From the sequence record SRR31156797_5071: a stretch of DNA of 38,413 nt. One strand, written 5' to 3'. This document shows, piece after piece, positions 3,501-22,060 of the stretch. Position 1 is the first letter of the stretch. Every line of letters starts with the position of its first letter. The position numbers were made by a program, and so were the translations under genes. The notes under the pieces were generated by a model. It was given only the letters and a program-made list of their open reading frames with translations, was not told the DNA's origin and ran no database searches.

Positions 3501-3849
3501 AGTAATTTCACACTCCCCTCTGCTTTCATGACCAAATCTGCTTGTATATGTAATTATTTATTTATTGGTTATATCTCATTACATTGTGATGAAAAGTAAA
3601 TCTTCACTAACTGTCTGCTATTGTGGTACAAGAATAAGGTTACTGACAGTCTTTGTGCTCTTTTAATGCTTTGGGTAATTTAGCATAACTATACCATTAT
3701 ATTGCATTGTGCCGTTTTCATCTTTATATCTGAAAATTGAAAAAAATAAAAAGCCAATCTAAACACATGGTAAAAGGCTGATATTATAACAAACTTCAAC
3801 TATTGACTTAATACTCACTGCTTTTGAGCATGATAAGGTGGGCTTACTT

Positions 3850-7884: not shown

Positions 7885-8162
7885 AAAGTAGTAAACATTC
7901 TAAAACTCAAAAATTTTTAGTTACAAAATTAACAATAGAGCTTCTCTGGACTGACTATTTAACCTTTTATTGCCCCCATTACACATCCTCACGATGCGAT
8001 ATTGTTACTCGTTGGCTTTACAAGTAGAAATCGATTTTATTCTAAGAAATCTTCCCAGCCTTTTTCATCCAGATGGTTCTGCTTATTTTCCCACTGCATC
8101 AACTGAGCTTAGAGCTTGCGAATAAAACATTGCATGTCGCTTAATATGCGGTTGGAGGGGCA

Positions 8163-8194
8163 CTGTGCAGGGTACTAAAACATACCCCGCACAG
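8163..8194 (-). terminator. Stem-loop immediately after the dctM stop
   Basis: Minus strand CTGTGCGGGGTA-8 nt loop-TACCCTGCACAG (one G-U pair). No U-tract, so it may be a stabilising hairpin rather than an intrinsic terminator. Confidence 0.5.
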
Positions 8195-8197
8195 AGT

Positions 8198-9532
8198 TTA
8201 TTCAACCATTTTATTAGGTAGAAAGGAAACGATCTCGGGAAATGCGGTGATAATGATCACCATCAAAATCATAATCATGAAAAACGGAAACGTAGCCTTA
8301 AGGATATTGCCTACTTTTTCGTTGGAAATACCTTCTATAACAAAGATACTGAATCCGACTGGCGGTGTTATCTGAGAAAGCTCCACCATAAAGACCAGAA
8401 AGATACCAAACCAAAGTGGATCGAATCCAGCAGCTACAATTATAGGGAGAACAATGGGCAGGGTCATGACTACGATGGAAATGCCGTCTAGAATCATACC
8501 CAGAATGAGATACATGATAGCAACGACAAGAATCAAAAGATATGGCGAGAGCCCAAGCCCTGAGATATACAGGCTCAGCGCCCTTGCAATACCAACAAAT
8601 CCTACCACCTGAGAAAGAAATGCTGCACCAACGATGATAAACGAGATCATCGAGGTTGTTTTAACCGCTGAAAGGACGGCTTGTTTAAAGTTTGCAAAAG
8701 TCAGGTTTTTAAACCAAAGGGCAAGCCCAAAGGCCCCCACAACGCCAATTGCTGCAGCTTCTGTTGGGGTGGTTATACCCATGTAGATGCCGCCAAGAAC
8801 GATAAATATAAGTAACAGTACGGGGAATAATTCCTGTGAGGATTTAATTTTATCCTTCAAGGTGTACCTTTCCTGCTCCTCTGGCATGACACTAGGGTTG
8901 ATGATCGCCCTTGCTGCAATATACAACGCATATGCAGAAGCCAGTAACAGACCGGGAATAACACCGGCGATGAACAGCTTGCCAATGGAGGTATCAGAAA
9001 GAATACCGTAGATGATCATGATAAGGCTGGGCGGAATCAGAAACCCAAGCGTGCCAGCACCTGCTAAAGAACCAATAGCAATCCCTCGGTCGTAGCCTCT
9101 TTTAGAGAGCTCATCCAAAGTAATTTTCCCTACTGTTGCCGTAGTTGCAGCGCTGGAACCGGAAACCGCAGCAAACAGTGAACAGGCAACAACATTAATA
9201 TGGAGCAGCCTGCCAGGTATGTTTGACAACCACGGCTGCAAGCCATTCAGCAGGCGGGTAGATATCTGGGTCCTGTATAAAATTTCTCCCATCAGAATAA
9301 ACAGAGGCAAAGCGGTCAAAGACCAGGAGTTAGTGCTGTTCCAGATAGAGTTTGCCAGCAGGCCTCCGATTTTATCCCAGATGGAGATAGTCGGCGGCAG
9401 GTTGAGGTCAAACAGCAGCATGCCGACCACACCTGAGGCCATCAGTGAAAATCCTATCCACAATCCGGACAATAACAGCAAAAACATGATCCCGAACAAC
9501 GCAAAAGTCAGGATTAACGGGTCGGAGATGAT
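8198..9532 (-). CDS. dctM: TRAP transporter large permease (DctM); start codon anomalous (ATC at 9532)
   Basis: LPLFILMGEIL, SGSSAAT, GTLGFLIPPS, TPTEAA, FDPLWFGI, QITPPVG. SD TAAGGAGG at 9545-9538 points to ATC 9532-9530; the ORF-track start at 9658 runs inside dctQ and is implausible. Confidence 0.9.
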   Translation of the reverse strand: MISDPLILTFALFGIMFLLLLSGLWIGFSLMASGVVGMLLFDLNLPPTISIWDKIGGLLANSIWNSTNSWSLTALPLFILMGEILYRTQISTRLLNGLQPWLSNIPGRLLHINVVACSLFAAVSGSSAATTATVGKITLDELSKRGYDRGIAIGSLAGAGTLGFLIPPSLIMIIYGILSDTSIGKLFIAGVIPGLLLASAYALYIAARAIINPSVMPEEQERYTLKDKIKSSQELFPVLLLIFIVLGGIYMGITTPTEAAAIGVVGAFGLALWFKNLTFANFKQAVLSAVKTTSMISFIIVGAAFLSQVVGFVGIARALSLYISGLGLSPYLLILVVAIMYLILGMILDGISIVVMTLPIVLPIIVAAGFDPLWFGIFLVFMVELSQITPPVGFSIFVIEGISNEKVGNILKATFPFFMIMILMVIIITAFPEIVSFLPNKMVE

Positions 9533-10005
9533 AACAGCCTCCTTAGGAAACCGCTTGCCAGTTGCAGGATAAACAGCAACAGGCCCACAGGGATAACCAG
9601 CTGGGGAATAAAAATGGGTGTTTCGGAAATCGAGTCTGCAGTCATACCCAGATCCCACACATCATAGGTCATCAGGATCGCGTGATACAGAGCAAAACTG
9701 GAGAGGACAAGGGCAATCAGTAAAACGATCAAATCTAATATCCGTTGACCCTGTTGAGAAAGTCTGCTTCTGACAATGCTGATGCGGATATGAGCTCCCT
9801 CTTTCATGGAAAAGGCAAGACCCGACATCACTACAGCTACAAAAAAATATGCGCTGTACTCGTCACTAATCAAAGTTGAAGTGTTAAAAACGGTTCGAGC
9901 AACGATTTCAACTACAATCAGGAGTACAATCAGGATCATAAACAGGCCGGAGATATATCCTCCGGCACGTGAAATTGCCTCAATAGCAGCAATGAACTTT
10001 TTCAT
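9514..10005 (-). CDS. dctQ: TRAP transporter small permease (DctQ)
   Basis: 163 aa, four hydrophobic segments, DEYS and HIRI motifs; lies between dctP and dctM; TAATG coupling to dctP. Confidence 0.92.
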   Translation of the reverse strand: MKKFIAAIEAISRAGGYISGLFMILIVLLIVVEIVARTVFNTSTLISDEYSAYFFVAVVMSGLAFSMKEGAHIRISIVRSRLSQQGQRILDLIVLLIALVLSSFALYHAILMTYDVWDLGMTADSISETPIFIPQLVIPVGLLLFILQLASGFLRRLLSSPTR

Positions 10006-10985
10006 TACTTTATGTATTTTCCAAGAACAGCAGCTTCTGCTTTTTTAGCCTTTTTAAGAAATTTTTGCTGGATTTGAGCAGCAGCAGCATCCAGTTCTGT
10101 TGTAAAGGCAGGCTCTTCCATAGTTACAGAAATACCCTTTTCTTTAATTGTTTGCAGAGCCTCTTCACTCCTTGCTTGGGATTTTTTCCACTGAGCCGTC
10201 TCGGTTTCATCGGCAGCTTTCAACATTGCTTCTTGCTGCTCAGGGGTCAATGCATTCCAGTAATCAAGATTAATGGTGACCATGTTCAAGGGGTAGGCAT
10301 AGTTAATGGGCTTAAAGTTATTGAGAACCTCCCAGAACTTACCATTTTTTGCAGACTCAGAAGATGTAAGTACGGAATCGATCATGCCTGTACGCAGAGA
10401 GGCATACACTTCTCCCCAAGGCATTGACAGTGGCATACCACCCATTGCTTTGAGAAATTCTGCGCCGTTTTTATCATAGGTACGAGTCTTGATGCCTTTA
10501 ATTTCGGCAGCACTGTTGATAACTTTTTTGGTTACAAGGCCACTTGGTGGCCATGGAGCGGCATAGAGCAATTTCTGATTCCACTTGGTGGCAGCCTTTT
10601 CGTAAAGCGGCTTGGTATCATTATACAGGGCATGGGCATCATCATAGGATTTAACAAGCCGCGGCAGAGAGCTTATGCCAAAGACGTGGGAACTACCAGC
10701 AACAACGCCCATAAGGATGTCTGACATTGGAACCTGCCCGTCTTTAACAACCTTAAGGAGTTCTGGTCCCTTAAAACCAAGGCTGCCGCCAGGGTGAACA
10801 GTGATAAGTACTGACCCATCGGTCTGGGTTTCTACTCGCTTGGCGAAATCCATAGCGCCTTGGGTATGAAAGCTGGTAGCACCATAAACAGCATTAAGAT
10901 CAAGTTTTGTAGGGGCAGCCAGAACTGCACCAGCGGAAAAAAGGACAAGGGCTGTAACGGCTAATAACGTTTTTACTCTTTTCAT
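10005..10985 (-). CDS. dctP: TRAP transporter substrate-binding protein (DctP), probably for 5-oxoproline or a related carboxylate
   Basis: Signal peptide ending AVLA; HPGGSLG, WPPSGL, KGIKTR (conserved Arg) and MPWGEVYASLRTGMID; downstream of pxpABC. Ligand is inferred from context. Confidence 0.9.
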   Translation of the reverse strand: MKRVKTLLAVTALVLFSAGAVLAAPTKLDLNAVYGATSFHTQGAMDFAKRVETQTDGSVLITVHPGGSLGFKGPELLKVVKDGQVPMSDILMGVVAGSSHVFGISSLPRLVKSYDDAHALYNDTKPLYEKAATKWNQKLLYAAPWPPSGLVTKKVINSAAEIKGIKTRTYDKNGAEFLKAMGGMPLSMPWGEVYASLRTGMIDSVLTSSESAKNGKFWEVLNNFKPINYAYPLNMVTINLDYWNALTPEQQEAMLKAADETETAQWKKSQARSEEALQTIKEKGISVTMEEPAFTTELDAAAAQIQQKFLKKAKKAEAAVLGKYIK

Positions 10986-11134
10986 GAATTGCGTACTCCT
11001 TGGTTGTGGTAATGAGATTGATCCACGGCTAAGGCTGTCTCAAAACAGGATTTTCAGAAGACCTTAAAGGATCAGTACGTGTGTTCTGGGATTACGAGTT
11101 TAATATTGATAGGTTGATTCCTGTGCCTGACACG

Positions 11135-12169
11135 TTACATCTGGCGCAGAAAGTTGATGATTTTCTCGCTGAATATCTCACTTTTATAATACTGTTTACC
11201 CAAGACAGCAAATGATTGCTCGTTGCTATATTCTGCTTTAAGAAGTCGGAACAACTCACTACTTTTCCGTTCCATATCCATCGCGTCATCAATGGACACC
11301 TTTTGAAACCGAATGGTGTCCCCTGGCATAGCCTGCGCTATTTTTGCGATATCCTCTCGGATGACAGTTGCAATTTTAGCATATCCGCCAACGGTTTGTT
11401 CTGAAAGCAGGATAATAGGATCCCCACCTTCCGGAACCTGTACTCCACCAGGTAGGCTTGGTTCGGAAATAATGCTGGCAGGCATGTTTTTTTTGCGCTC
11501 GATCTTCGGTCCTTTTAACCTGTACCCCATTCGATTAGCCTCCGGGCTAACGATGAATTCCTGACTAAAAAAAATTTCCAGTCCATGATCAAAAAAATCA
11601 TCCTGTGGCCCAGGGAGAGCACGAAGTTCCCAGTTAGAAGTGTGGGTTGGCACATAGGCTGCTGGAATAGTTCGGGGCTCAATATTTTCAGCCAATTTAT
11701 CTAAATTAGCTAGTACATCACCGACCGCAAGAGGGCGGCCTTCATGGCCACCGAACCGGCCGTCGGTGTAACAGGAGCGGCTGCCCATAATCACAGGTAC
11801 GTCTATCCCGCCGTTAATACCTAGGTAGGCACGGCAACCTCTTTCAGCATGTCCTATTGTGACAACGTCCCCTTTTGCAACTGCAAAAGACGACCAATTA
11901 TCCACGAGATTACCGTTGATTTTGACTGGCATTGCTGCACCAGTGACAGCTAATGTGCACGGGGTCAGCACCTCTAAAATGGGCCCAGCAAGGGTTATTT
12001 CCAACACAGCGCTGTTTTCGTGATTGCCTAACAGAAAATTTACCGTTTTGGCAGCAAACCTGTCAACAGCGCCACTTGGAGGCACCCCATAACGCTGGTA
12101 TCCGAATCTGCCTAGATCCTGGACGGTGGAATATGCTCCAGGTTGTCTGACTTTTAATACCGCAGACAT
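11135..12169 (-). CDS. pxpC: 5-oxoprolinase subunit PxpC (KipA/AHS2 family)
   Basis: STVQDLGRFGYQRYGVPPSGAVD, LEITLAGP, GSRS, NRMGYRL, GGVQVP and TVGGYAKIATV; third gene of a coupled pxpA-B-C run. Confidence 0.93.
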   Translation of the reverse strand: MSAVLKVRQPGAYSTVQDLGRFGYQRYGVPPSGAVDRFAAKTVNFLLGNHENSAVLEITLAGPILEVLTPCTLAVTGAAMPVKINGNLVDNWSSFAVAKGDVVTIGHAERGCRAYLGINGGIDVPVIMGSRSCYTDGRFGGHEGRPLAVGDVLANLDKLAENIEPRTIPAAYVPTHTSNWELRALPGPQDDFFDHGLEIFFSQEFIVSPEANRMGYRLKGPKIERKKNMPASIISEPSLPGGVQVPEGGDPIILLSEQTVGGYAKIATVIREDIAKIAQAMPGDTIRFQKVSIDDAMDMERKSSELFRLLKAEYSNEQSFAVLGKQYYKSEIFSEKIINFLRQM

Positions 12170-12885
12170 CAGGACTTCCCGGGCAGCAGTTTAAAAAAAT
12201 CTTGGCGAGAAACAGGGATAAAACGAAGGTGATCACCTGCTTTAACAAGAAAAGGATTGGAACGAAGTGGATCAAAAATCTTGTAGGGACACCTACCGAT
12301 TAATTGCCAGCCACCGGGACTATCAATAGGATAAATGCCGGTTTGATTGTTGGCGATACCCACTGATCCTGCCTGAACAGTGCTTCTTGGCGTTGCAAGG
12401 CGCGGAGTATGTATTTTAGCAGAAAGACCTCCAAGATAGGGGAAGCCAGGTGTAAAGCCGATCATATATACTGGATAAATAGTTTCTGAGTGTATCCTTA
12501 TAACATCTTCTGCTGACACTCCATTGTGGCTTGCTACTTGCTCTAGGTCTTCACCAAACTCGCCGCCATAGCATACAGGAATCTCAACTATCTCAGGATT
12601 AGAGACCGGACTGCTTTCCAAATCAGAATAGAGAGAAATGAGTTCTTTTTGTAATTCCTGTAGATCTGTCAGCAGTGGCTCATAAACCAAAACCAGAGAC
12701 CTATAAGAAGGGATTATTTCTATGACCCCTTCAGGCAGTGGGTTTTCAAGTGATTTGCAAAAAGCATGAATTTTTTGATTAGTTTCTAAATCAATCTCAG
12801 CACTGAACTCGACCAGTAACCCTCTGTCACCCACATGCCGAAAAACTGGTTCCGAGAATAATTTACTCTGCTGTTTGTTTACCAT
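12169..12885 (-). CDS. pxpB: 5-oxoprolinase subunit PxpB (KipI/AHS1 family)
   Basis: GDRGLLV, IPSYRSL, IPVCYGGEFGEDL, IGFTPGFPYL and YPIDSPGGWQLIGR. Confidence 0.95.
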   Translation of the reverse strand: MVNKQQSKLFSEPVFRHVGDRGLLVEFSAEIDLETNQKIHAFCKSLENPLPEGVIEIIPSYRSLVLVYEPLLTDLQELQKELISLYSDLESSPVSNPEIVEIPVCYGGEFGEDLEQVASHNGVSAEDVIRIHSETIYPVYMIGFTPGFPYLGGLSAKIHTPRLATPRSTVQAGSVGIANNQTGIYPIDSPGGWQLIGRCPYKIFDPLRSNPFLVKAGDHLRFIPVSRQDFFKLLPGKS

Positions 12886-13664
12886 TATGTAACAAGATCA
12901 AGTACGGGTTTAACATTTATCCCAGCTTTTTCCAGAGCCTGGCGAATGGTTCTCACCAAAACTCCAGCATGGCTTGTGTCTCCGTGCAAACACAGTGTTT
13001 CGGCTTCAATCTCTATTGTATTGCCCAATGTGTCGATAATTTTACCTTCTTCGGCCATCATCAGGGCGCGATCGGCAATTTCAGATGGATCTGTCTTTAC
13101 TGATCCCTCCTGGTCACGTGGGGCAAGATTGCCATCAGGTGTGTATGCTCTGTCAGGAAATGCTTCGTAGATGACCCGGAGTCCGAACTCTTCCCCTACC
13201 TTTGCCATAATCTTTCCCTTTTCGCCAGCTAGGGCAATAAAGGCTATTTTTTGGCTGACGTTGACAATCCCTTCAGCAATAGATTTTGCGATATCTTCGT
13301 TTTCAACGGCCTTGAGATAAAGGCTGCCATGGGGTTTTACGTGACTGACTCTGGTGTTGTGAACACTGCAAAAACCTTGTAGTGCCCCTACTTGGTAAAT
13401 AATGTAATTGCGAATTTCCACAGGGGTGAGGTTCATTGGTCGACGACCAAACCCCATAAGGTCGGGATAACCCGGATGCGCACCTGTATTGACGTTGTTT
13501 GCAATGGCCATTCGTATCGTACGATCCATAACCATGGGATCACCAGCATGCCATCCGCAGGCAATATTTGCGGAGGTAATATGCGGCATCACCTCATCGT
13601 CAGCTCCCATTTGATAGGCGCCGAAACTTTCTCCCATATCGCAATTGAGGTCAATTTGTTTCAT
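12885..13664 (-). CDS. pxpA: 5-oxoprolinase subunit PxpA (LamB/YcsF family)
   Basis: IDLNCDMGESFG, SANIACGWHAGDP, GAHPGYPDLMGFGRR, HVKPHGSLY, EAFPDRAY and TLCLHGD; SD AAGGAG. Confidence 0.96.
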   Translation of the reverse strand: MKQIDLNCDMGESFGAYQMGADDEVMPHITSANIACGWHAGDPMVMDRTIRMAIANNVNTGAHPGYPDLMGFGRRPMNLTPVEIRNYIIYQVGALQGFCSVHNTRVSHVKPHGSLYLKAVENEDIAKSIAEGIVNVSQKIAFIALAGEKGKIMAKVGEEFGLRVIYEAFPDRAYTPDGNLAPRDQEGSVKTDPSEIADRALMMAEEGKIIDTLGNTIEIEAETLCLHGDTSHAGVLVRTIRQALEKAGINVKPVLDLVT

Positions 13665-13873
13665 GGCAGTGCTCTCCTTTGCTCAGGCGGGTACTATGTG
13701 GAACTTAGGCTGAAAGGTTTTATTAAAACCTGATGTTACACCAATTCTGTGGAATAGACTTGCTAATAAGAAAATTTCATTTACAAGGCTAACTGACTGT
13801 CTAGAGGTACTTTCAGGTGGCTAGAAGCCGGCCTGGTCACGTCAGATCGTTATTAACCCTTAAAATAATATTT

Positions 13874-13957
13874 AATATATGTCAAACGTAATCTAAATAT
13901 ATCTGTTTTATATCTGAACCTGAAAATTGATGGTATCTCTTTAAATTTACATATATT
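13874..13957. promoter_or_regulatory. Divergent pxpA/gntR control region with four AATATAT(G/C)T-like boxes; candidate GntR operator
   Basis: AATATATGT (13874), AATATATCTG (13896), TTTATATCTG (13907) and inverted ACATATATT (13949). The outer two are part of TTGACATATATT (minus strand) and TTTACATATATT (plus strand). Confidence 0.5.
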
Positions 13958-14015
13958 GTGGTATTATATTTTATGCTTTGTAGCGAATAAGTATTAAAAG
14001 GGGTAAACAGGTAAA

Positions 14016-14687
14016 ATGAACAAACGAAAGCTATCAAAGGTGGAGATCGCCTACGACAAAATTTTTCAGCAGATAATGACCACCGAGTTTCATCCGGGAC
14101 AGCAGCTTGAAGAGAAATACCTCATGGAAACCTTGCGCATTGGCCGTACTCCCATTCGCGAGGCTTTATTGCGTTTGGAGATCAACATGATGGTTGAATC
14201 CCAGTCGGGCAAGGGGTTTACCGTCAGACCGGTTACTCTCCAGTCCACCAGAGCAGTCTTTGAAACCCTGGCTATTCTTGAAAAAGGAGTCGCAGATCTG
14301 GCAGCAACCAAAGAAATAGGCGCTCAACTGAAAAAAATGGCTGCAGCCAACCAAAATTTACAGAACGCAGCCGAGCAGTTCGACACTTTAGGGATGGTTA
14401 AGGAAAACTACACTTTTCACCTGGCTTACGCAGAATGTTCGCACAACGAGTACCTGATCCATGGCATCACAGCAGTCCAGTGTGAAACAAGGCGACTCGC
14501 CTACCTCTCCTTTGGTGACCGGATTAATGACCGAAACAGCCTAAGCGAACATTACCTGAGGGTGATTGATGAACACCAGCAAATAGTTGACTCGCTCAGG
14601 GACCGTGACATCGAGCGCCTAAAAGAAATTATCGACCTTCACGTCGCAGCATTTAAAACCAGAATTGTTAGTTTTTTGGTAGGATAA
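14016..14687 (+). CDS. GntR-family transcriptional regulator (FCD ligand-binding domain)
   Basis: N-terminal wHTH (PGQQLEE...IGRTPIREAL...GKGFTV); FCD histidines in FH, EH and LH; divergent from pxpA. Confidence 0.92.
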   Translation: MNKRKLSKVEIAYDKIFQQIMTTEFHPGQQLEEKYLMETLRIGRTPIREALLRLEINMMVESQSGKGFTVRPVTLQSTRAVFETLAILEKGVADLAATKEIGAQLKKMAAANQNLQNAAEQFDTLGMVKENYTFHLAYAECSHNEYLIHGITAVQCETRRLAYLSFGDRINDRNSLSEHYLRVIDEHQQIVDSLRDRDIERLKEIIDLHVAAFKTRIVSFLVG

Positions 14688-14723
14688 CCATTCGGTACGG
14701 AGCAAATGAATAAAGACTTGGTC

Positions 14724-14903
14724 CTCTTATTTTGCTCCCGGCGCTCTAGTTTAATCAAGGCGTGCTCAGCTGCTTCTCCCATGTTGCTTAGAGTTATCGG
14801 CTTGGTAAAATAGCCTTCAAACCCAGCTTCTCTACAACTTGCCAGCTCTAATAAGGATACTCCCGGTAACGCCAAATGGGATCGCCATTGGCCATTTTGC
14901 CTG
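14724..14903 (-). pseudogene. Frameshifted C-terminal remnant of a single-domain response regulator (REC)
   Basis: Minus strand reads QAKWPMAIPFGVTG, then shifts frame at 14861-14858 into SLLELASCREAGFEGYFTKPITL...ALIKLER. This matches receiver beta4 (T-G) and beta5 (Y/F-x-x-KP); no N-terminal half is visible. Confidence 0.6.
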
Positions 14904-15222
14904 ACAACCAGTTTGAATGACAGCTTTTTTCTTTATCCAAGTTATTTTTTAAAGTAAAAAAAGCAGAGTACCCTAGTGAGACACACGAATGTTGTTCACA
15001 CTGATTTGCGAAGCAATTCTCCATTCTATTCGAAGTCCTTGTGCACAATTCTACAGCTTTCGCCGATGGTCCTAGTGCAGCAGGAACGTTAATTTTTTGT
15101 CGACAAAATTTTGGCATTATGCAAACATACCCGTGATATCGTAACAAATATGTTGCTTTGCATGACTTGGAGGCTGCTCTTTTTCGGTCATCCGTACTCC
15201 TTACCCTCATCATACTCAAACG

Positions 15223-15927
15223 GTGATACACGTGTTTACATATCAAACCGATAGTAATAATACCAGCGATGACCCCCAACCGGTTACCCTGTTTATGGAT
15301 TGTTGTGTCGCCGCAGGATACACCGGTCGCAACCAGGAAAGTGTCCAAGCACATATTGAAGAGCTAAAAAAAATCGGTGTTGCTACCCCCTATGCCATTC
15401 CAGCACTGTACTGGATTAGTCCTGCCAGACTGACCAATGCAGACGAACTGCTGGTTGTTGGTGATCAAACTAGTCCTGAAGTTGAGTTTTTTCTGGCCAA
15501 AGACAAGGATGGTACTCTTTATGTAACTGTTGCCAGTGATCACACCGACCGTGAATTGGAAGCTGTATCTGTGGGGAAGGCCAAACAGATTTGCGACAAA
15601 GTGCTTGGCGATCATTTTTGGAAGGTAGACGATGTGGCAAATCATTGGGATCAAATTGAAATCCATTCACAAGTACTTAAAGAAGAACAATGGGTTGCTT
15701 ACCAGTCAGGAACCCTCGGCCAGATTCTTCATTACAGCGAACTGCTCAAAATAATAGCAGACGACAAACCCTGTGGGGAAAAGCCTGCTTTACTTAGTGG
15801 TACCATTCCACTTATCGGCGGTGACGCAGTTTTCACCTCTGCCTGTAGAATTACGATGAAAGATCCCGTGCTCAACCGCGAGATAGAAAAAAGGTACAAA
15901 ATAACATTGATACCAGACAGGAGTTAA
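15223..15927 (+). CDS. DUF2848-family protein
   Basis: AGYTGRNQ...HIEEL..IGV..P, TSPEVEF, SDHTDRELE.VSV..AKQ.C.K, HWD and YQSGTL match my recollection of DUF2848. The GTG start has no clear SD. Confidence 0.8.
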   Translation: MIHVFTYQTDSNNTSDDPQPVTLFMDCCVAAGYTGRNQESVQAHIEELKKIGVATPYAIPALYWISPARLTNADELLVVGDQTSPEVEFFLAKDKDGTLYVTVASDHTDRELEAVSVGKAKQICDKVLGDHFWKVDDVANHWDQIEIHSQVLKEEQWVAYQSGTLGQILHYSELLKIIADDKPCGEKPALLSGTIPLIGGDAVFTSACRITMKDPVLNREIEKRYKITLIPDRS

Positions 15928-15934
15928 CCAGCTT

Positions 15935-16714
15935 ATGCAGATTGCTGTGATTCAGCCGACAATTTTTAGCGGTAACAAAAAACGTAACTATCAAAGGGTT
16001 TCCCAATTAGTCGAACAGGCTGTAGACAATTCCCCCAAAACTGATGTTATAGTTTTGCCCGAGCTTTGGTCCACTGGCTATGCCTTGCCAGAGCTTAACC
16101 ACATTGCAAGCGACCAGGGATTGGAAGAAGCAGCGTTTCTTAGTGATCTCGCCATAAAACATGACGTCTGGTTTGCAGGAGGTTCTGTCGCAGCCAAAAC
16201 TAATAAGGGAGTTACCAACCGTGCCCAGATCATTAATCGTCAAGGACAGCTTGAGGCATACTACGATAAAATCCATCTTGTCCCCATGCTTGATGAACAT
16301 CTCTTCTTAACCGCCGGTAACAAAACTTGTGTGCATAATATAGAGGAAATAACCTTTGGATTTGCCATTTGTTATGACATTCGCTTCTGTGAATTTATGC
16401 GAAAATTAGCCCTTGACGGTGCCCAGGTTATGATTGTTGCTGCCCAGTGGCCTTTGGTCAGGCTCAGTCACTGGCAGGCACTGCTTAAAGCAAGGGCTAT
16501 CGAAAACCAATGTTACCTGGTTGCTGCCAATAACACAGCAATGGGCGAGGCACCCTTTGCAGGTCACTCTACCGCTTTAGGTCCAGACGGCAGCACTCTT
16601 ATTCAGTTTGAATTCCTGGAAGGGGTACAGCAGGTTACCGTTGATGTGACCAAAGTCGAGCAAATAAGAAAAGCAGTCCCTGTTTTCAAAGACAGACGAC
16701 CTGATTTGTATTGA
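15935..16714 (+). CDS. Carbon-nitrogen hydrolase (nitrilase superfamily; omega-amidase MtnU/YafV-like)
   Basis: Glu-Lys-Cys triad in LPELW, YDKIHL and ICYDIRF; ARAIENQ, GHS and DRRPDLY. Confidence 0.9.
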   Translation: MQIAVIQPTIFSGNKKRNYQRVSQLVEQAVDNSPKTDVIVLPELWSTGYALPELNHIASDQGLEEAAFLSDLAIKHDVWFAGGSVAAKTNKGVTNRAQIINRQGQLEAYYDKIHLVPMLDEHLFLTAGNKTCVHNIEEITFGFAICYDIRFCEFMRKLALDGAQVMIVAAQWPLVRLSHWQALLKARAIENQCYLVAANNTAMGEAPFAGHSTALGPDGSTLIQFEFLEGVQQVTVDVTKVEQIRKAVPVFKDRRPDLY

Positions 16715-16761
16715 GCAACATTTGAACGTTTAATACGTTTTTCACCTTATGGAGAAATTAA

Positions 16762-17535
16762 ATGACTCCTGCAGAATTAAGAGCCTTATCTGCTGCCGGA
16801 AAACTTGACAAACCCACTGCTGGCTACTGTCCAGGATATGTACAGGCAAATCTGGCAGCCTTTCCGAAAAAAGATGCTGCTGATTTTGAAAAATTTTGCA
16901 GTGCTAATCCAAAACCATGCCCCCTACTCGAAGTCATTGGTCCGCAAAGCCATACGTCCAGATTCCTTGCTCCTGGAGCAGATATTAGAGATGTTATTCC
17001 ACGTTATCAGATATGGCATGACGGTATCTGCACCGATACAGTCCAATCGCTCCACTCAATAGATACCAGTGATTTCGTTTTTTTCCTTTTAGGCTGCAGC
17101 TTTTCTTTTGAGGAGGCCCTGGTTGATGCAGGAATTTCCCTGCGCCATATTGACCAACATAAAAATGTAGCCATGTATCGCACCAATATTCCTCTTGAAC
17201 CAATGGGATTGTTTGATGGCAACATGGTGGTTTCCATGCGTCCCATTCCTGCACACCAGGTAGAGTTAGCAGCCAAAATTACAGGTATGTTTCCAGATGT
17301 TCATGGTGCACCTGTCCACACCAATGACCCGCAAGCAATTGGTATCCAGCAGATTGACCAACCTGACTATGGAGAGTTTGTGGAGATTAAGGCCAATGAA
17401 GTTCCAGTTTTCTGGGCCTGTGGAGTGACACCGCAAAATGTTGTTCGGAAAGCAAAACTCCCTTTTGCCATCAGCCATGCTCCCGGATATATGTTTGTTA
17501 GTGATATTAAAAACAGTGATTACGCAGTCAGGTAA
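16762..17535 (+). CDS. Putative hydro-lyase, UPF0317/DUF1445 (YcsI; D-glutamate cyclase-like)
   Basis: TAGYCPGYVQANL, NPKPCPLLEV, LGCSFSFE, MVVSMRP, HGAPVH, PVFWACGVTPQ and HAPGYMFVSD; SD GGAG. Confidence 0.92.
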   Translation: MTPAELRALSAAGKLDKPTAGYCPGYVQANLAAFPKKDAADFEKFCSANPKPCPLLEVIGPQSHTSRFLAPGADIRDVIPRYQIWHDGICTDTVQSLHSIDTSDFVFFLLGCSFSFEEALVDAGISLRHIDQHKNVAMYRTNIPLEPMGLFDGNMVVSMRPIPAHQVELAAKITGMFPDVHGAPVHTNDPQAIGIQQIDQPDYGEFVEIKANEVPVFWACGVTPQNVVRKAKLPFAISHAPGYMFVSDIKNSDYAVR

Positions 17536-17587
17536 GAATATCTCCTGCTGTCTATGTTGGAACCATTAACCAGTTTTGGAGGATTTT

Positions 17588-18628
17588 ATGAAGTTTGGGA
17601 AAAAAATTGCAGCAATAGTCTGCATGGGATTTGTAGTTTCTTGTTCCACGGCTCTGGCCAAACCCGATACATTGCGAGTTGTCGGCAGCTGGAATAGCTT
17701 AACCTTATATAAAAATTTTGAAAAACCTTTCTGGACAGAAACCGTCCCTCAAGAACTGGGCATGAAGACAAGCATGACTTCTTTGGGCCAGGTTAAGCTC
17801 AAAGGGCCTGCCGTCGTACGCCAAATGGGTATGGGTGTTTTTGATGTTGTGCATACTGTAGCTGACTATATTGTTTCCGATTCCCCTGATCTTGCGGCAC
17901 TTGACCTGCCAGGCGTTACAACTGACATTGAAACCGCGAAAAAAACCGTGGATGCATACAGGCCTACTTTGGAAAAGAATCTTGCCCGCGATTTTGATGT
18001 CAAGCTTCTCAGCGTAGTTCCCTACCCTGCCCAGGTTCTTTTCAGCCGAGTGCCCATTAAAGGACTTGATGATCTGAAAGGCAAAAAAATTAGAGCGTCG
18101 GGCTGGACCACCTCAGAATTTGTTACTGCTTTAGGGGCCACGGGTGTGACGCTGTCTTTTAGCGAGGTACCTCAATCACTGCAGCGCGGCGTTGTTGACT
18201 GTGCAATTACCGGTTCCCTTTCCGGGTATTCTGCTGGCTGGGGAGAGGTTTCCAAGTATATCTATCCGCTTCCCATTGGCGGCTGGGATTATGTTATAGG
18301 CGTAATGTCCATGAACACATGGAATAAACTGTCCAAAGAGCAGCAACAAAAATTACAGACTTTGATAACCGAAAAGCTCGAAAAACCTGGCTGGGCCGTT
18401 ACTGCCAAAGAAACCCAGGAAGGAGTTGATTGTCTCACCGGTAAAACATGTCCACATGGTGAGCCGCAGCATCTCATAGAAGTTCCCGTTACGAAAGAAT
18501 CCATAAGCAAGGTTCAGGAAGTTTTGGTCAACGATGTCCTGCCTGCACTGGCGGAAAAGGTTACCCCGGAAACCATGTCCACCTGGAATAAGACCATCGG
18601 TAAAGTGGTTGGCATTCAGGCGAAGTAA
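17588..18628 (+). CDS. dctP: TRAP transporter substrate-binding protein (second DctP)
   Basis: GGAGG then ATG 17588; signal peptide ending ALA; DLKGKKIR and FSEVPQSLQRGVVDCAITG. Confidence 0.9.
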   Translation: MKFGKKIAAIVCMGFVVSCSTALAKPDTLRVVGSWNSLTLYKNFEKPFWTETVPQELGMKTSMTSLGQVKLKGPAVVRQMGMGVFDVVHTVADYIVSDSPDLAALDLPGVTTDIETAKKTVDAYRPTLEKNLARDFDVKLLSVVPYPAQVLFSRVPIKGLDDLKGKKIRASGWTTSEFVTALGATGVTLSFSEVPQSLQRGVVDCAITGSLSGYSAGWGEVSKYIYPLPIGGWDYVIGVMSMNTWNKLSKEQQQKLQTLITEKLEKPGWAVTAKETQEGVDCLTGKTCPHGEPQHLIEVPVTKESISKVQEVLVNDVLPALAEKVTPETMSTWNKTIGKVVGIQAK

Positions 18629-18643
18629 TATTTACCCCTTTTA

Positions 18644-18677
18644 AACGGATTCTGCTGCATACGCGGCAGAATCCGTT
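18644..18677 (+). terminator. 15-bp stem-loop between dctP and dctQ
   Basis: AACGGATTCTGCTGC-ATAC-GCGGCAGAATCCGTT (one G-U pair) with a weak T-tail; likely a leaky terminator or mRNA stabiliser favouring dctP. Confidence 0.7.
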
Positions 18678-18799
18678 GTTCGTCAGTTAAAACAAACTCC
18701 TTTAGGTGTTTAGCCTGTTTGAAAAAGCTGGGCTATACAGCCTTTGCAGAGTTTATCACCAGAGAACGTAGAAGTTAGCCCAAATTAGGGAATGGTTTT

Positions 18800-19387
18800 A
18801 TGAGCGGATTACTACACAGAACAGAAAAAATTTCTCAGGTGGCAGCATGGTGCTCGGGCTTGCTCCTTTTTTTAGCCTCCATCATGATAGCGGTTGAGGT
18901 CATCCTACGCAAAGCTTTTGCCTATTCTATAGGAGGAGCAGATGAATTATCAAGTTACGCTCTAGCCATCAGCTGCACTTGGGGATTTAGCTATGCCCTG
19001 TTTCGTAAATCCCATATCCGTATCGATGTATTGTACAGTCGTCTGCCAGCTGCTGGGCGTTACCTGCTTGATTTAATCGCACACCTGTTGCTAGGAACCT
19101 ATATTGTTGTTCTCTGCTATTTCGGTTTTTTCGTAGTCAAAACCTCGATTGTGAAACATTCTGCCGCCAATACCCCTCTGGCAACCCCGTTATGGATTCC
19201 TCAGGGTCTCTGGCTCTTAGGGTTATTGTGGTTTGCGTTCTGTATCGCCATGATTCTTGGCGGTACCATTTTGCACCGTGTGCAAAACAACCACCGCGAA
19301 GCCAACAGACTTTCCGGAATATCCACCCTGGATGAAGAAATTCAAGAAACTGCTGAAATAAGCAAATTCCCAGAGGCTGCCTCATGA
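18800..19387 (+). CDS. dctQ: TRAP transporter small permease (DctQ)
   Basis: GADELSSY, HIRID and TPLWIPQ; ATGA overlap with dctM. Confidence 0.92.
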   Translation: MSGLLHRTEKISQVAAWCSGLLLFLASIMIAVEVILRKAFAYSIGGADELSSYALAISCTWGFSYALFRKSHIRIDVLYSRLPAAGRYLLDLIAHLLLGTYIVVLCYFGFFVVKTSIVKHSAANTPLATPLWIPQGLWLLGLLWFAFCIAMILGGTILHRVQNNHREANRLSGISTLDEEIQETAEISKFPEAAS

Positions 19388-20670
19388 TTATTACCGTAAC
19401 GCTGGCAATCCTGCTGGCTCTGCTTCTGCTAAGCGTCCCCGTGGCCGCAGCCCTTATAGCACTTGGACTATCCATTGGAGAAATTTTTTCAGATTTCCCA
19501 CTCTACCGTGCAATTGGGGAAATATCGTGGTCGGCAAGTACTGATTTCCTGCTGCTTTCTATTCCACTGTTTGTCATGCTTGGAGAAATTTTGCTGCGAG
19601 CAGGGATTGCGGCAAAGACATATAATGCCCTTAATAAATGGTTATCCTGGCTGCCGGGTGGGCTTTTGCAAGCCAATATAGGTACCTCCGCCCTTTTTGC
19701 AGCTACTTCCGGTTCATCTGTAGCCACGGCCGCAACTATTACTACAGTCGCTCTCCCCCAAGGAAGACTATATAATTACTCTGAAAAACTTTTTGCTGGT
19801 TCCATTGCAGCTGGCGGTACGCTGGGAATCCTTATCCCACCGTCAATCAACCTTATTGTATATGGCTTTCTCACCAACACCTCAATTCCGCGCCTTTTCC
19901 TGGCAGGTATTGTTCCCGGCATCCTACTGGCTATACTCTTTATGATGTGTATTGGAATTGCCTGTTTTCTCAACCCAAAATTGAGCGGAGGCAAACAGGC
20001 CGCTACCTGGCAGGAACGATTTGATAGTTTAAAAGACCTTATTCCGGTCCTTATCATTTTCGTGGTCGTCATTGGTTCAATCTATGCGGGGCTTGCTACG
20101 CCAACAGAGTCTGCAGCCTTGGGCGTACTCGCATCGCTGCTCCTTGCCTTTCGCTACCGCGCGGTCAGTATCGATTTTTTCAAACAGGTCTTTGAAGGGA
20201 CCATGCGCACAAGTTCCATGATAATGTTGATCCTTATTTCAGCAAACTTTCTCAACTTTATCCTGGATTCCATCGGTCTTGCCGAGATGCTCAATGAATT
20301 TGTAACCAACCTGGGAGCATCCCCGCTCAATACGCTGTTGGTAGTTATAGCGCTCTACATAGTTCTTGGTTTCTTTGTTGAAACCCTCTCACTTATGGTC
20401 ATCACTATTCCCATTGTTGCCCCGATACTGGTCAATATGGGATATGATCCCATTTGGTTTGGCATACTTCTGATCCTGTTGATTGAAATGGCCTTGATCA
20501 CGCCGCCAGTTGGTTTAAATCTCTATGTAGTTCAGGGAGTGCGACGTACAGGCTCCATCACCGATGTCATGGTTGGTGCGGCACCTTTTGTTGTTATGAT
20601 AGCAATCATGATTGTACTGCTCATCATTTTTCCAGAGATAGCCTTGTACTGCACCCAGTTTGTGAATTAA
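19384..20670 (+). CDS. dctM: TRAP transporter large permease (DctM)
   Basis: IPLFVMLGEIL, SGSSVAT, GGTLGILIPPS, TPTESAA, YDPIWFGI and ITPPVGLNL. Confidence 0.95.
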   Translation: MIITVTLAILLALLLLSVPVAAALIALGLSIGEIFSDFPLYRAIGEISWSASTDFLLLSIPLFVMLGEILLRAGIAAKTYNALNKWLSWLPGGLLQANIGTSALFAATSGSSVATAATITTVALPQGRLYNYSEKLFAGSIAAGGTLGILIPPSINLIVYGFLTNTSIPRLFLAGIVPGILLAILFMMCIGIACFLNPKLSGGKQAATWQERFDSLKDLIPVLIIFVVVIGSIYAGLATPTESAALGVLASLLLAFRYRAVSIDFFKQVFEGTMRTSSMIMLILISANFLNFILDSIGLAEMLNEFVTNLGASPLNTLLVVIALYIVLGFFVETLSLMVITIPIVAPILVNMGYDPIWFGILLILLIEMALITPPVGLNLYVVQGVRRTGSITDVMVGAAPFVVMIAIMIVLLIIFPEIALYCTQFVN

Positions 20671-20872
20671 TAAATATCAACCAAAGACCAGACTATATAT
20701 TTCCTGATTACGTACAATACACAGCCAATTATACAAGCCGACAGGGAACTGATTATATTTTTCTTTACACCAATGAGGCAGATCGAAACCTGCACGGAGA
20801 AATTCAATCTGTCTCCTTAAGCGGGAAATGGCTGAGTTTCATAGGTAATCAGACTAAACTTTGGATAAACCA

Positions 20873-21409
20873 ATGAAAAAAAGAACACCACCTTCTCCCA
20901 ATGTCCCTTTTTCACCTATTGTATCTTCCGAGCATCTGGTTTCTGAAGATACATGGCCATTGAGTGAATTTGAATATGGTCTGATCACCGCCCATCACGT
21001 TTTTTCCCGATGGATGATCCGCTGTATGCATGCTGCAGGATATGATGATTTCAGTCCACTGGATGTATTGGTTATCCATAATCTCAACCATAGAGACAGG
21101 CAGAAGCGTTTGGTTGATATCTGCTTTGTCCTCAATATAGAGGACCACCATACCGTCAACTATTCCCTTAAAAAACTCATCAAGGGCGGTTTGGTGCAAC
21201 GTGAAAAACGTGGTAAGGAAATGTTTTATTGCACCACAGAGAAGGGGAAGGAAGCGTGCCGTAAATATCGTGATATTCGTGAAAAATGCCTTTGTTCAGA
21301 ATACAGAGGGCTCGGCAAAGAAGCATCAGAGGTCAGCGAAGCAGCATCCCTGCTTCGACTCATGTCCGGTCTTTACGACCAGGCATCCAGGGCAGCATCA
21401 TTACTGTAA
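20873..21409 (+). CDS. MarR-like winged-helix DNA-binding protein
   Basis: IVSSEHL...LSEFEYGL...RWMIRCM, ICFVLNIED.HTVNYSLKKL..GLV and TEKG wing. ATG 20873 (TTG 20861 alternative). Confidence 0.85.
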   Translation: MKKRTPPSPNVPFSPIVSSEHLVSEDTWPLSEFEYGLITAHHVFSRWMIRCMHAAGYDDFSPLDVLVIHNLNHRDRQKRLVDICFVLNIEDHHTVNYSLKKLIKGGLVQREKRGKEMFYCTTEKGKEACRKYRDIREKCLCSEYRGLGKEASEVSEAASLLRLMSGLYDQASRAASLL

Positions 21410-21455
21410 AAAAAACTAGCTACCGGTCGCTCCGCACAAAGGATAGCCCAGAAGC

Positions 21456-21486
21456 ATCTCCTGTGACACCGTATGTTACAGGAGAT
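21456..21486 (+). terminator. Stem-loop between the convergent marR-like and nim-like genes
   Basis: ATCTCCTGTGACA-CCGTA-TGTTACAGGAGAT followed by ATCTTTTATT. Confidence 0.7.
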
Positions 21487-21491
21487 ATCTT

Positions 21492-21980
21492 TTATTCCTT
21501 GCTTCCCTTCGTGCCACTTGCCGGAGCCCTTTTCCCATCAATATGTTTGATTTCAATTTTTATAACTTTCGTAGCTTTATCGAGTTTTTCAATATACTTT
21601 TTGCCTTCTTCCATAAATTCTGGCGAATATTTCTCTAACAACCATTCTAGGGCATTATAACGCTCAGTTCCCTGTACCTCAGATGCAACCCCAAAGACTA
21701 CTGCGCTCACATAATTAGTAGAAAAATCAGCAGGTAGCACTTCTACATCCCCCACCACACAAAAAGATACTTGAGGATTATTATCAATGTTATCAAGCTT
21801 GCAGCCTGTTAAAGCACAGTGAAAATAAACCGCATTATCCTTAAACACATAGTTCAAGGGAACGCCGTAAGGCTGCCCATCTTCTCCGACCGTTGACAGG
21901 ATACCGTATTCTTCATTGGTAAGTAACGCGGCAGTTTCTACCACACCAAGTTGTTTATCTTTTCTTCTCAATTCCTTCAT
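21492..21980 (-). CDS. Pyridoxamine 5'-phosphate oxidase-like flavin-binding protein (Nim-like)
   Basis: LRRKDK N-terminus, YGILS, PYGVPLNY, YFHCA..G.K, NPQVSFCVVG, Y.SAVVFG and L.EKYSP. Confidence 0.85.
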   Translation of the reverse strand: MKELRRKDKQLGVVETAALLTNEEYGILSTVGEDGQPYGVPLNYVFKDNAVYFHCALTGCKLDNIDNNPQVSFCVVGDVEVLPADFSTNYVSAVVFGVASEVQGTERYNALEWLLEKYSPEFMEEGKKYIEKLDKATKVIKIEIKHIDGKRAPASGTKGSKE

Positions 21981-22060
21981 GAAATTTCATTCCTGATAAC
22001 TGAATTTATCGACTATGCAACGAGTACCACAGAACCTCGCCTTCTCCCCTATCTGAAACA

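Follow-up and report, generated by a model that had tools for sequence, protein, structure and literature searches.

Two divergent transporter–enzyme arms at a PxpABC locus of a sulfate-reducer-type bacterium

Gene content of the locus

The window in this study is the whole stretch of 38,413 nt in sequence record SRR31156797_5071, and the locus of interest occupies positions 8198..21409. The genes were identified from a list of open reading frames (ORFs) and from Pfam and NCBIfam scans. The locus consists of two divergent arms. [quoted passage not shown] Arm 2 (plus strand) extends from a gntR gene to a marR-like gene and carries three enzyme genes and a second TRAP transporter. The host is a sulfate-reducer-type bacterium. 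All 14 genes named in a preliminary description of this DNA were present with strong family matches, and three of the starts were corrected. The features, with fumarylacetoacetate hydrolase abbreviated as FAH, are as follows.

8198..9658, minus strand: dctM1, TRAP large permease of arm 1 (longest ORF; PF06808 1.8e-92; TIGR00786 above cut-off)
9514..10005, minus strand: dctQ1, TRAP small permease of arm 1 (PF04290 2.8e-24)
10005..10985, minus strand: dctP1, TRAP solute-binding protein of the DctP6/DctP7/6wgm type (DctP family 5e-41; PDB matches)
11135..12169, minus strand: pxpC (CT_A_B), 5-oxoprolinase subunit C-like (PF02626 3e-90; TIGR00724 above cut-off)
12169..12885, minus strand: pxpB (CT_C_D) (PF02682 1e-77; TIGR00370 equivalog 236 bits, cut-off 145.55)
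12885..13664, minus strand: pxpA (LamB/YcsF) (PF03746 1e-94; NF003814 336.7 bits, cut-off 226)
13665..14015, no strand: divergent control region between pxpA and gntR (87% identity among three genomes)
14016..14687, plus strand: GntR/FCD-type regulator (PF00392 and PF07729)
15095..15108, no strand: palindrome TTTTGTCGACAAAA, perfect over 14 bp, candidate GntR operator (in a block conserved in three genomes)
15232..15927 (listed ORF from 15223), plus strand: DUF2848, predicted FAH-fold enzyme (PF11010 3e-61)
15935..16714, plus strand: putative Nit-branch carbon-nitrogen hydrolase (amidase) (PF00795 8e-48)
16762..17535, plus strand: DUF1445/'D-Glu_cyclase' putative hydro-lyase (PF07286 3e-65; NF003969 above cut-off)
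17576..18628, plus strand: dctP2, TRAP solute-binding protein, BB0719 (4n4u)-like (PF03480 2e-23)
18648..18673, plus strand: hairpin between dctP2 and dctQ2, within their 171-nt spacer (10-nt inverted-repeat arms, one mismatch)
18800..19387, plus strand: dctQ2 (PF04290 2.5e-22)
19384..20670, plus strand: dctM2 (PF06808 1e-85; TIGR00786 above cut-off)
20873..21409 (listed ORF from TTG 20861), plus strand: MarR-like winged-helix regulator (HTH_27/MarR_2; PF13463 2.4e-19)

The true start of dctM1 is probably further downstream, near the dctQ1 stop, because the longest ORF shares 145 nt with dctQ1. For DUF2848, GTG 15232 is the most likely start, because the resulting 231 amino acids equal the length of most homologues and one relative, Desulfogranum marinum, has ATG at this position. 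The most likely start of the marR-like gene is ATG 20873. The nearest DNA in the genome collection was that of a Desulfobulbus metagenome-assembled genome (MAG; locus L001) and of Desulfogranum marinum DSM 2058 (L002). The order of the 14 genes is identical in L002, where a nim-like gene comes next, and L001 keeps the order from pxpC onward to the end of its contig. This recurrence indicates that the layout is not a chance neighbourhood.

Transporters and enzymes of the two arms

The best PDB matches of dctP1 (residues 26-322) were a solute-binding protein from a marine metagenome (6wgm, 3e-46) and the Bordetella pertussis receptors DctP6 (2pfz, 8e-40) and DctP7 (2pfy, 4e-38). The titles of all three entries name pyroglutamate, the ligand given for the two Bordetella receptors in the preliminary description. 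The P-W-P-P-x-G and R-x-Y stretches, including a conserved Arg, are common to dctP1 and the three structures, and the similarity extends over nearly the full length. PxpA, PxpB and PxpC are encoded together by overlapping genes at 11135-13664 (PF03746, PF02682 and PF02626), and the PxpA subfamily and PxpB equivalog models scored above their cut-offs. The presumed role of PxpABC on 5-oxo-L-proline is read from its context, namely the adjoining pyroglutamate-type binding protein. We consider it very probable that arm 1 acts on pyroglutamate, through uptake and opening to glutamate.

Arm 1 probably also serves as the housekeeping oxoprolinase of the cell, because in the L002 genome the pxpA of this locus was the sole PF03746 match and a search for PF02538 (HyuB) gave no match. 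In relatives carrying arm 2 alone, an oxoprolinase was found elsewhere beside a dctP1-like TRAP, as pxpABC in L081 and L082 and as hyuAB in L083. A fourth such relative (G003) had no match to either oxoprolinase family, and its genome may be incomplete. From the three former cases, the combination of an oxoprolinase and a dctP1-type TRAP is a free-standing unit, which tolerates the exchange of the enzyme for an unrelated one.

Similar units are known. Passages of two reports describe growth on 5-oxoproline by means of pxp genes, in Corynebacterium glutamicum, which has a GntR-type 5-oxoproline sensor (PMC13274462), and in Pseudomonas putida (bioRxiv 2021.12.09.472016). In SAR11, a pyroglutamate importer of the ATP-binding cassette (ABC) type adjoins pxpABC, according to part of the text of PMC11485210, and in Bordetella an oxoprolinase gene is said in part of PMC13274462 to lie in the vicinity of the pyroglutamate TRAP receptor genes. 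Because of the C. glutamicum, P. putida and SAR11 reports, a use of pxp beyond metabolite repair, which had been put forward for this locus, was already known. Compared with Bordetella, the TRAP genes here form one unit with PxpABC, and the second receptor (dctP2) groups with BB0719 (4n4u). The clusters pxpR-pxpTABC of C. glutamicum and pxpA-ycsG-ycsI-pxpBC of Bacillus subtilis resemble the window in combining an importer, PxpABC and a GntR-type regulator (PMC13274462). However, the importer in the window is a TRAP transporter rather than an Nramp/APC-type carrier, DUF2848 and a Nit amidase are added, and the GntR gene and its candidate operator are located at the DUF2848 arm instead of at pxp. 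B. subtilis gave a DUF1445 match in a control search, and this gene is presumably ycsI, inside the pxp operon.

The binding protein of arm 2, dctP2, matched the PDB sequences 4n4u (BB0719, 5e-18) and 2pfy (DctP7, 2e-17), with identities of about 20% to DctP7 and 23% to dctP1. Its model had a predicted local distance difference test score (pLDDT) of 86, and the best structure match was again 4n4u, with a template-modelling (TM) score of 0.89. The protein keeps the carboxylate-binding Arg and the overall DctP7 frame. At the conserved stretches it has P-Y-P-A-Q-V and R-A-S, which 4n4u has too and which differ from those of the three pyroglutamate binders (W to Y, G to V, and R-x-Y to R-x-S), so that dctP2 falls outside the DctP6/DctP7/6wgm group by similarity and by conserved stretches. 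These changes are the pattern expected of a related but different ligand, although they would not prove it. A VIA-align ranking with DctP7 and DctP6 first was rejected as evidence for the ligand, because these entries were within 1-3 Z of dozens of TRAP solute-binding proteins; the Z of 33.7, against 30-32 for many others, does not separate them. Because the two binding proteins are distant paralogues, dctP1 and dctP2 likely serve two ligands, as the preliminary description had supposed in proposing two lactams with two transporters. In addition, residues 286-295 of dctP2 read C-L-T-G-x-x-x-C-x-x-G, and both Cys are invariant in 24/24 dctP2-type proteins (alignment A4). This stretch is outside regular secondary structure in the model, and the two Cys may form a subfamily-specific disulfide.

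The fold of DUF2848 had to come from structure, because its alignment profile gave only one chance-level match among the PDB sequences. The AlphaFold2 (AF2) model (pLDDT 91) matched FAH-family structures in Foldseek; there were 53 PDB matches at E <= 0.001, and among the matches listed all belonged to the FAH family. The best were 2q1a (2-keto-3-deoxy-D-arabinonate dehydratase, 6e-8) and 4dbf (Cg1458 oxaloacetate decarboxylase, 9e-8), and further matches included YisK (8sut), HpcE and fumarylpyruvate hydrolases. The model thus assigns DUF2848 to the FAH beta-sandwich fold, with Foldseek values of 6e-8 to 5e-4 and TM scores of about 0.5-0.65 against 2q1a, 4dbf, 8sut and HpcE, but with only 9-17% identity to them. 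E86, E88, D106, D109, K119 and K121 (numbered from the 15223 start) are invariant in 19 sequences. The E-x-E pair and the later Asp and Lys residues are candidates for the metal site and catalytic motif of FAH enzymes. To our knowledge, enzymes of this fold act on 2-oxo or diketo acids and not on amino-acid amides. A full-text literature search did not find the term 'DUF2848', and no reaction is described for the family.

The amidase of arm 2 matched 3p8k (1.5e-53), followed by yeast Nit3, NitFhit and mouse Nit2 (near 1e-25). Its nearest NCBIfam models were the YafV-type amidohydrolase (PRK10438, 123.8 bits, cut-off 249) and the deaminated-glutathione amidase (110.1 bits, cut-off 355). It would therefore be placed in the Nit2/Nit3/YafV omega-amidase branch and is not called an orthologue. 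Of 48 sequences, at least 95% retain the catalytic residues E43, K112 and C146. Known substrates of Nit1/Nit2 relatives are 2-oxoglutaramoyl amides. The amidase is thus closest to the glutamine transaminase/omega-amidase pathway (Nit2, Nit3 and YafV), whose Glu-Lys-Cys residues it keeps. In contrast to that pathway, it scores below the curated cut-offs, it is encoded with an importer and two function-unknown enzymes, and no transaminase gene is present at the locus. This co-encoding suggests that the amidase helps to break down a compound taken up from outside rather than to clear internal by-products.

DUF1445 scored 218.7 bits with PF07286 (cut-off 25) and 367.9 bits with the 'putative hydro-lyase' equivalog NF003969 (cut-off 324). 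It matched 3db9 (2e-80) and 2pif (1e-76), two PDB entries without an assigned function. Mouse D-glutamate cyclase (9030617O03Rik, the mammalian DGLUCY), which converts D-Glu to 5-oxo-D-proline, contains DUF1445 together with DUF4392, and the available passages of PMC5339696 attribute the activity to neither domain specifically. The kinship to this enzyme that had been claimed for the window protein holds for the shared PF07286 domain; the activity is documented for the two-domain mouse protein only, and the window protein is single-domain and lacks DUF4392. In a literature search on 'DUF1445', the papers containing the term looked unrelated, judging by their titles and abstract openings, and no bacterial reaction is described for this family.

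Genomic neighbourhoods and control regions

Neighbourhoods were collected around DUF2848, dctP2 and DUF1445. The DUF2848-anchored set comprised the best-scoring 80 of 569 confirmed relatives. The ORFs were labelled with the window proteins and eight further locus proteins, and a neighbour was accepted within 8 kb at >=80 bits (GntR at >=28 bits). The counts are of loci and not of independent events, because the set is a best-scoring subset and many members are close kin (11 Salinicola-type and about 10 Desulfobulbales), a point that lessens their weight. Pfam checks covered 96 neighbouring ORFs from 16 loci. An amidase of one of two unrelated families was near DUF2848 in 65/80 loci, namely a CN-hydrolase amidase in 53/80 and an amidase-signature (AS) amidase in 12/80. 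DUF1445 and a dctP2-type TRAP were each found in 24/80 loci, and the two occurred together in 22/80. The alternative importers were anion carriers, with another DctP type in 21/80 and a major facilitator superfamily (MFS) carrier of the ACS type in 11/80. GntR-like genes were present in 41/80 loci, LysR in 13/80, MarR-like homologues in 3/80, pxp genes in 5/80 and hyuAB in 2/80. Neither an amidase nor DUF1445 was found in 12/80 loci, and in at least 5 of these 12 the contig was short or the match was at the contig end.

The seven loci with pxp or hyu within 8 kb showed at least five arrangements (L001/L002, L011, L025/L038, L073 and L074). In L011, pxpA follows dctM2 on the same strand. HyuA-HyuB is directly upstream of DUF1445-dctP2QM-DUF2848 in a Deferribacter (L025) and a Desulfurellales MAG (L038), and the nearest NCBIfam models of the L025 HyuAB are caprolactamase CapA/CapB, of the ATP-dependent lactamase branch. 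The full order in L038 is hyuAB-DUF1445-dctP2QM-DUF2848-dctP1QM, with a dctP1-type TRAP of 419 bits, so that both TRAP types stand with one oxoprolinase, as in the lineage of the window. This argues for two ligands. A Bacillota MAG (L073) has DUF2848-amidase-Nramp-pxpBCA, and a Paracoccaceae MAG (L074) has a marR-like gene followed by divergent pxpBCA-LysR-DUF1445-dctP2QM-DUF2848. Among other variants, Salinicola has LysR-DUF1445-dctP2QM-DUF2848-AS amidase, a SAR116 genome has DUF2848-AS amidase, and Bacillota have units of the form GntR-(MFS)-amidase-DUF2848.

With a profile built from 24 dctP2 sequences, 20 places, including L074, were recovered in 18 of 401 sampled Pseudomonadota genomes, and each place was viewed in a stretch of about 19 kb (about 9 kb each side). 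In the 11 places above 480 bits, DUF1445 and LysR adjoined dctP2 in 11/11, DUF2848 was present in 7 and an AS amidase in 4. An oxoprolinase was within the stretch in 7 of the 11, as pxp in 6 and as a fused OplAH of 1186 amino acids in 1; none was in range in L140 and L142. In L137 and L141, pxpBCA directly follows DUF2848 or dctM2. Of the nine weaker places, two were hyuA-hyuB-dctQM-dctP, one was a full module with pxp 5-7 kb away, one was cut by a contig end, and the other five had none of these genes or weak AS-amidase-like matches. Between the AS amidase and pxpABC, L134 (14940-16106) and L138 (3052-4287) carry a flavin oxidoreductase of the old yellow enzyme (OYE) type (PF00724) and an ORF without a Pfam match, and L135 has the same spacing. 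The OYE gene is a hint that certain forms of the module include a reduction.

PF07286 was found in 52/301 sampled genomes of the phylum of L002. The 30 best places were viewed with 1.5 kb on each side, and 43/88 flanking ORFs were Pfam-scanned. DUF1445 was beside ABC importer parts (PF04392 and/or ABC_tran) in 8/30 places, Peripla_BP_6 binding proteins in 5/30, a class-III aminotransferase in 5/30, pxp genes in 4/30, SBP_bac_5 in 1/30 and arm-2-type genes in 1/30. Because ABC importers, binding proteins and aminotransferases dominate these places, DUF1445 is a general companion of uptake systems and not of oxoprolinases alone. In L085, L086, L089, L090 and L096 (Thermodesulfobacteriota), the aminotransferase is directly after DUF1445. 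In a DUF1445 tree of 55 rows, the module-linked copies did not form one supported clade (at least two changes), and neither a separation into subtypes nor a single context appeared.

These data show that arm 2 is made up of two pairs, one of DUF1445 and the dctP2-type TRAP, the other of DUF2848 and an amidase. Each pair can stand alone, the latter with other anion importers and the former with an oxoprolinase only. The arm-2 module is genuinely tied to ATP-driven lactam opening, since the association appears in five phyla (Thermodesulfobacteriota, Deferribacterota, Campylobacterota with L038, Bacillota and Pseudomonadota), in varied gene orders and with two unrelated oxoprolinase families. In the order of the window itself, Desulfobulbales, the arms are mostly apart and are separable modules.

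The GntR/FCD regulator probably belongs to arm 2, because in distant phyla (L016, L026, L034 and L046) a GntR gene of the FCD type stands immediately before DUF2848; in L064, an MFS and an amidase gene stand between them. In form, the palindrome at 15095-15108 would fit the GT-N-AC type operators of GntR/FadR-type (FCD) repressors. It abuts a candidate -35 (TTGGCA, 15111-15116) and is followed by a candidate -10 (TGATAT, 15134-15139) of arm 2, and L001 and L002 keep its block upstream of DUF2848 except for one change. The 10-nt core occurs once in the window, and since 72/100 shuffles had at least one match, it is no rarer than chance. Scans for promoter and terminator consensus over 8000-22000 gave counts at the level of shuffled sequence.

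In the otherwise AT-rich pxpA-gntR spacer, a GC-rich block at about 13786-13860 is nearly invariant in the three genomes. On the minus strand, which is the sense of the pxpA leader, 13775-13870 can form a long imperfect hairpin (-27.8 kcal/mol, z = -2.9; 4/200 shuffles as good). A leader or a small RNA may be encoded by this block; with three sequences this similar, covariation gives no guide. An Rfam search of 13500-15400 at E <= 1 gave no match. The gntR-DUF2848 spacer is about 535 nt in the window, against about 200 nt in L001 and about 370 nt in L002. In this region (14688-15090), the extra DNA holds a stop-to-stop frame on the minus strand (14639-14932), which ends in a sequence resembling the C-terminal part of response-regulator receiver domains. 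The frame had no Pfam match at 1e-5 and may be what is left of a gene.

The marR-like gene is close behind dctM2 in L001 and L002 (about 40-50 nt), and a homologue of 166 bits is divergent from pxpBCA in L074. About 160 nt (20700-20860) between dctM2 and this gene in the window are absent from L001 and L002. To the left of arm 1, a hybrid histidine kinase of 1348 amino acids (3838-7884, plus strand) immediately adjoins the locus; it has an ABC_sub_bind-type periplasmic domain, PAS and PocR sensory domains, HisKA/HATPase and a receiver. To the right, a Nim/PNPOx-family protein gene (21492-21980, minus strand; NimABCDEF 112 bits, below the 260-bit cut-off) is convergent with the marR-like gene. 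A 13-pair hairpin (21456-21486) lies between the two genes, and the position of the nim-like gene is kept in L001 and L002. Beyond it is an AcrB-type efflux pump gene (22061-25195, minus strand).

A proposed pathway and its alternatives

The genes present, their folds, the neighbourhood counts and the cases in which one enzyme family stands where another stands elsewhere are what the data show; from these we infer the ligands and reactions of the following pathway. The locus would hold two catabolic modules, able to exist apart, that converge on one ATP-dependent lactam hydrolase, a tentative model that falls somewhat short of being probable. In arm 1, the DctP6/DctP7-type TRAP would import L-pyroglutamate, and PxpABC, probably the only oxoprolinase of the cell, would spend ATP to open its ring, with L-glutamate as the product. 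Arm 2 would be a separate operon, probably under the control of GntR/FCD acting through the promoter palindrome. Its BB0719-like TRAP would import a second, pyroglutamate-like carboxylate, which DUF1445 (the constant partner of this TRAP), the putative FAH-fold metal enzyme DUF2848 and the Nit-type amidase would convert to glutamate or to 2-oxoglutarate and ammonia. PxpABC would provide a shared or alternative ring-opening step for arm 2.

We have good reason to believe that the two arms are functionally coupled, with arm 2 handling a related second anionic compound through the same ring opener. The link between the arms is functional because the module adjoins PxpABC or the unrelated HyuAB/OplAH in several phyla. 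HyuAB/OplAH ATP-dependent lactamases (5-oxoprolinase and CapAB) are not present in the window but replace PxpABC beside the DUF1445-TRAP module in L025, L038 and L143. Together with the P. putida paralogues, they point to a coupling with ATP-driven lactam opening in general, so that the substrate of pxpABC need not be 5-oxoproline. The exchange of PxpABC for HyuAB/OplAH, Nit for AS amidase, and TRAP for MFS restricts the likely substrates to amides or lactams that are anionic and of the C5 type.

The preferred substrate of arm 2 would be 2-oxoglutaramate, imported as the lactam 2-hydroxy-5-oxoproline; DUF2848 and/or DUF1445 would deal with the lactam ring, and hydrolysis of the open-chain amide would fall to the amidase. 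This identification is possible but doubtful. It was chosen because the compound is a 2-oxo acid, which suits FAH-type chemistry; because it is an amide and a known substrate of the Nit2/YafV branch, equally open to the AS amidase; and because its lactam resembles pyroglutamate, which would suit a binder related to DctP7 and might make it an oxoprolinase substrate. Parts of a published account (PMC6302742) describe the cyclisation of 2-oxoglutaramate to a pyroglutamate look-alike and note that the fate of the lactam has seldom been explored. No bacterial gene cluster for 2-hydroxy-5-oxoproline or 2-oxoglutaramate was recognised in a literature search by title or abstract opening. In a more specific and still more doubtful version, DUF2848 would be the first enzyme, opening or converting the ring of 2-hydroxy-5-oxoproline on an FAH-type metal site. 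Ammonia and 2-oxoglutarate would next be set free by the Nit amidase, and DUF1445 and the oxoprolinase would form a parallel, interchangeable C5-lactam branch. If true, reactions would be assigned to two widespread domains of unknown function, and bacteria would scavenge 2-oxoglutaramate from their surroundings.

Several observations weigh against the proposed pathway. For arm 1, PxpC reached 231 bits with the NF045499 equivalog, below the 500-bit cut-off, and a second pxpABC paralogue of P. putida acts on butyrolactam and not on 5-oxoproline, according to passages of the report (bioRxiv 2021.12.09.472016). For arm 2, the structure closest to dctP2 (4n4u) has a title that mentions no ligand, and a literature search on 4N4U found no relevant paper. 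The window DUF2848 protein had no PF01557 match even at E = 10; a cluster relative (P0101) scored 26.3 bits (cut-off 23.9) and the L039 copy 18.1 bits. The amidase is below every NCBIfam equivalog cut-off. With 2-oxoglutaramate as the substrate, DUF1445 has no clear role, and nothing supports the availability of this compound to these anaerobes. The minimal loci LysR-DUF1445-dctP2QM with pxpBCA (L141) or OplAH (L143) lack DUF2848 and the amidase, which suggests that the dctP2 ligand may be pyroglutamate or its enantiomer. A search for an operator shared by both arms and the marR upstream region found only short, chance-level words. The palindrome core occurs only at arm 2, and one 10-mer shared among these regions is inside an insertion specific to the window.

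The preliminary description had assigned 5-oxo-L-proline to arm 1 and the D-enantiomer, or D-Glu/D-Gln-type compounds, to arm 2. Its linkage of the arms is upheld and two ligands remain likely, whereas the split by enantiomer as written is not sustained and is now considered unlikely. According to that proposal, dctP2 would import 5-oxo-D-proline, and DUF1445 would either convert it to and from D-glutamate or turn it into a form that PxpABC can use. DUF1445 is indeed the constant partner of the dctP2-type TRAP (22/24 such DUF2848-anchored loci and 11/11 dctP2-anchored places), and L141 and L143 contain only DUF1445, this TRAP and an oxoprolinase in addition to LysR. The conserved Arg and DctP7 frame of dctP2, with altered stretches, would also fit a related but different ligand, and the DUF1445-bearing mouse protein makes 5-oxo-D-proline. 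However, the proposal gives no role to DUF2848 or the amidase, the best-conserved pair (65/80 loci), which often occurs without DUF1445 or an oxoprolinase. The mouse enzyme has a second domain, and the available passages do not map its activity to DUF1445. The cyclase runs towards the lactam, so that combining it with ATP-driven ring opening of the same enantiomer would result in a futile cycle. Moreover, DUF1445 in Thermodesulfobacteriota is mostly beside ABC importers, amino-acid-type binding proteins and class-III aminotransferases rather than oxoprolinases.

Alternatively, arm 2 could feed PxpABC, in that an imported substituted pyroglutamate, gamma-glutamyl amide or N-substituted 2-oxoglutaramate would be trimmed to 5-oxoproline or glutamate by the three arm-2 enzymes, with the oxoprolinase as the last stage. 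To some extent an amidase and an ATP-dependent lactamase stand in for one another, as L025, L038 and L074 have an oxoprolinase without an amidase, and the Salinicola loci and L136 have an amidase without an oxoprolinase in range. The OYE-type flavin reductase of L134 and L138 hints at further steps, and the substrates of Nit1/Nit2 relatives are of a suitable kind. On the other hand, no particular compound is indicated, many DUF2848-amidase loci have neither an oxoprolinase nor DUF1445 nearby, and the known chemistry of FAH-fold enzymes does not include amino-acid amides. We regard this role for arm 2 as improbable. It is very unlikely that the arms are unrelated neighbours, a housekeeping pyroglutamate unit beside which an independent amide pathway landed: seven Desulfobulbales loci (L003-L006 and L008-L010) do have arm 2 complete but lack pxp within 10 kb, three of their genomes carry the oxoprolinase on other contigs or far off, and the arms are divergently transcribed with no shared operator found, but the module recurs beside two unrelated oxoprolinase families in five phyla and varied orders, with pxpA behind dctM2 on the same strand in L011 and pxpBCA directly behind the module in L137 and L141. 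The expectation that the arms would stay together in relatives was accordingly borne out in L001 and L002 and not in these seven loci.

The coupling of two modules, each able to exist apart, therefore remains our preferred reading. The families at the locus are known, and arm 2 is an uncharacterised pathway with the ordinary architecture of a regulated uptake-catabolic operon. The window presents its most complete form, with both TRAP transporters, three enzymes, PxpABC and two regulators. The cultured Desulfogranum marinum DSM 2058 has the same layout, and the Salinicola and Paracoccaceae variants belong to aerobes that are easier to handle. Pyroglutamate has only lately been recognised as a bacterial growth substrate (P. 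putida in 2021, SAR11 in 2024 and C. glutamicum in 2026). The pyroglutamate uptake and ring-opening unit has repeatedly been joined to a second module, and this gives a testable lead on the functions of DUF2848 and DUF1445.

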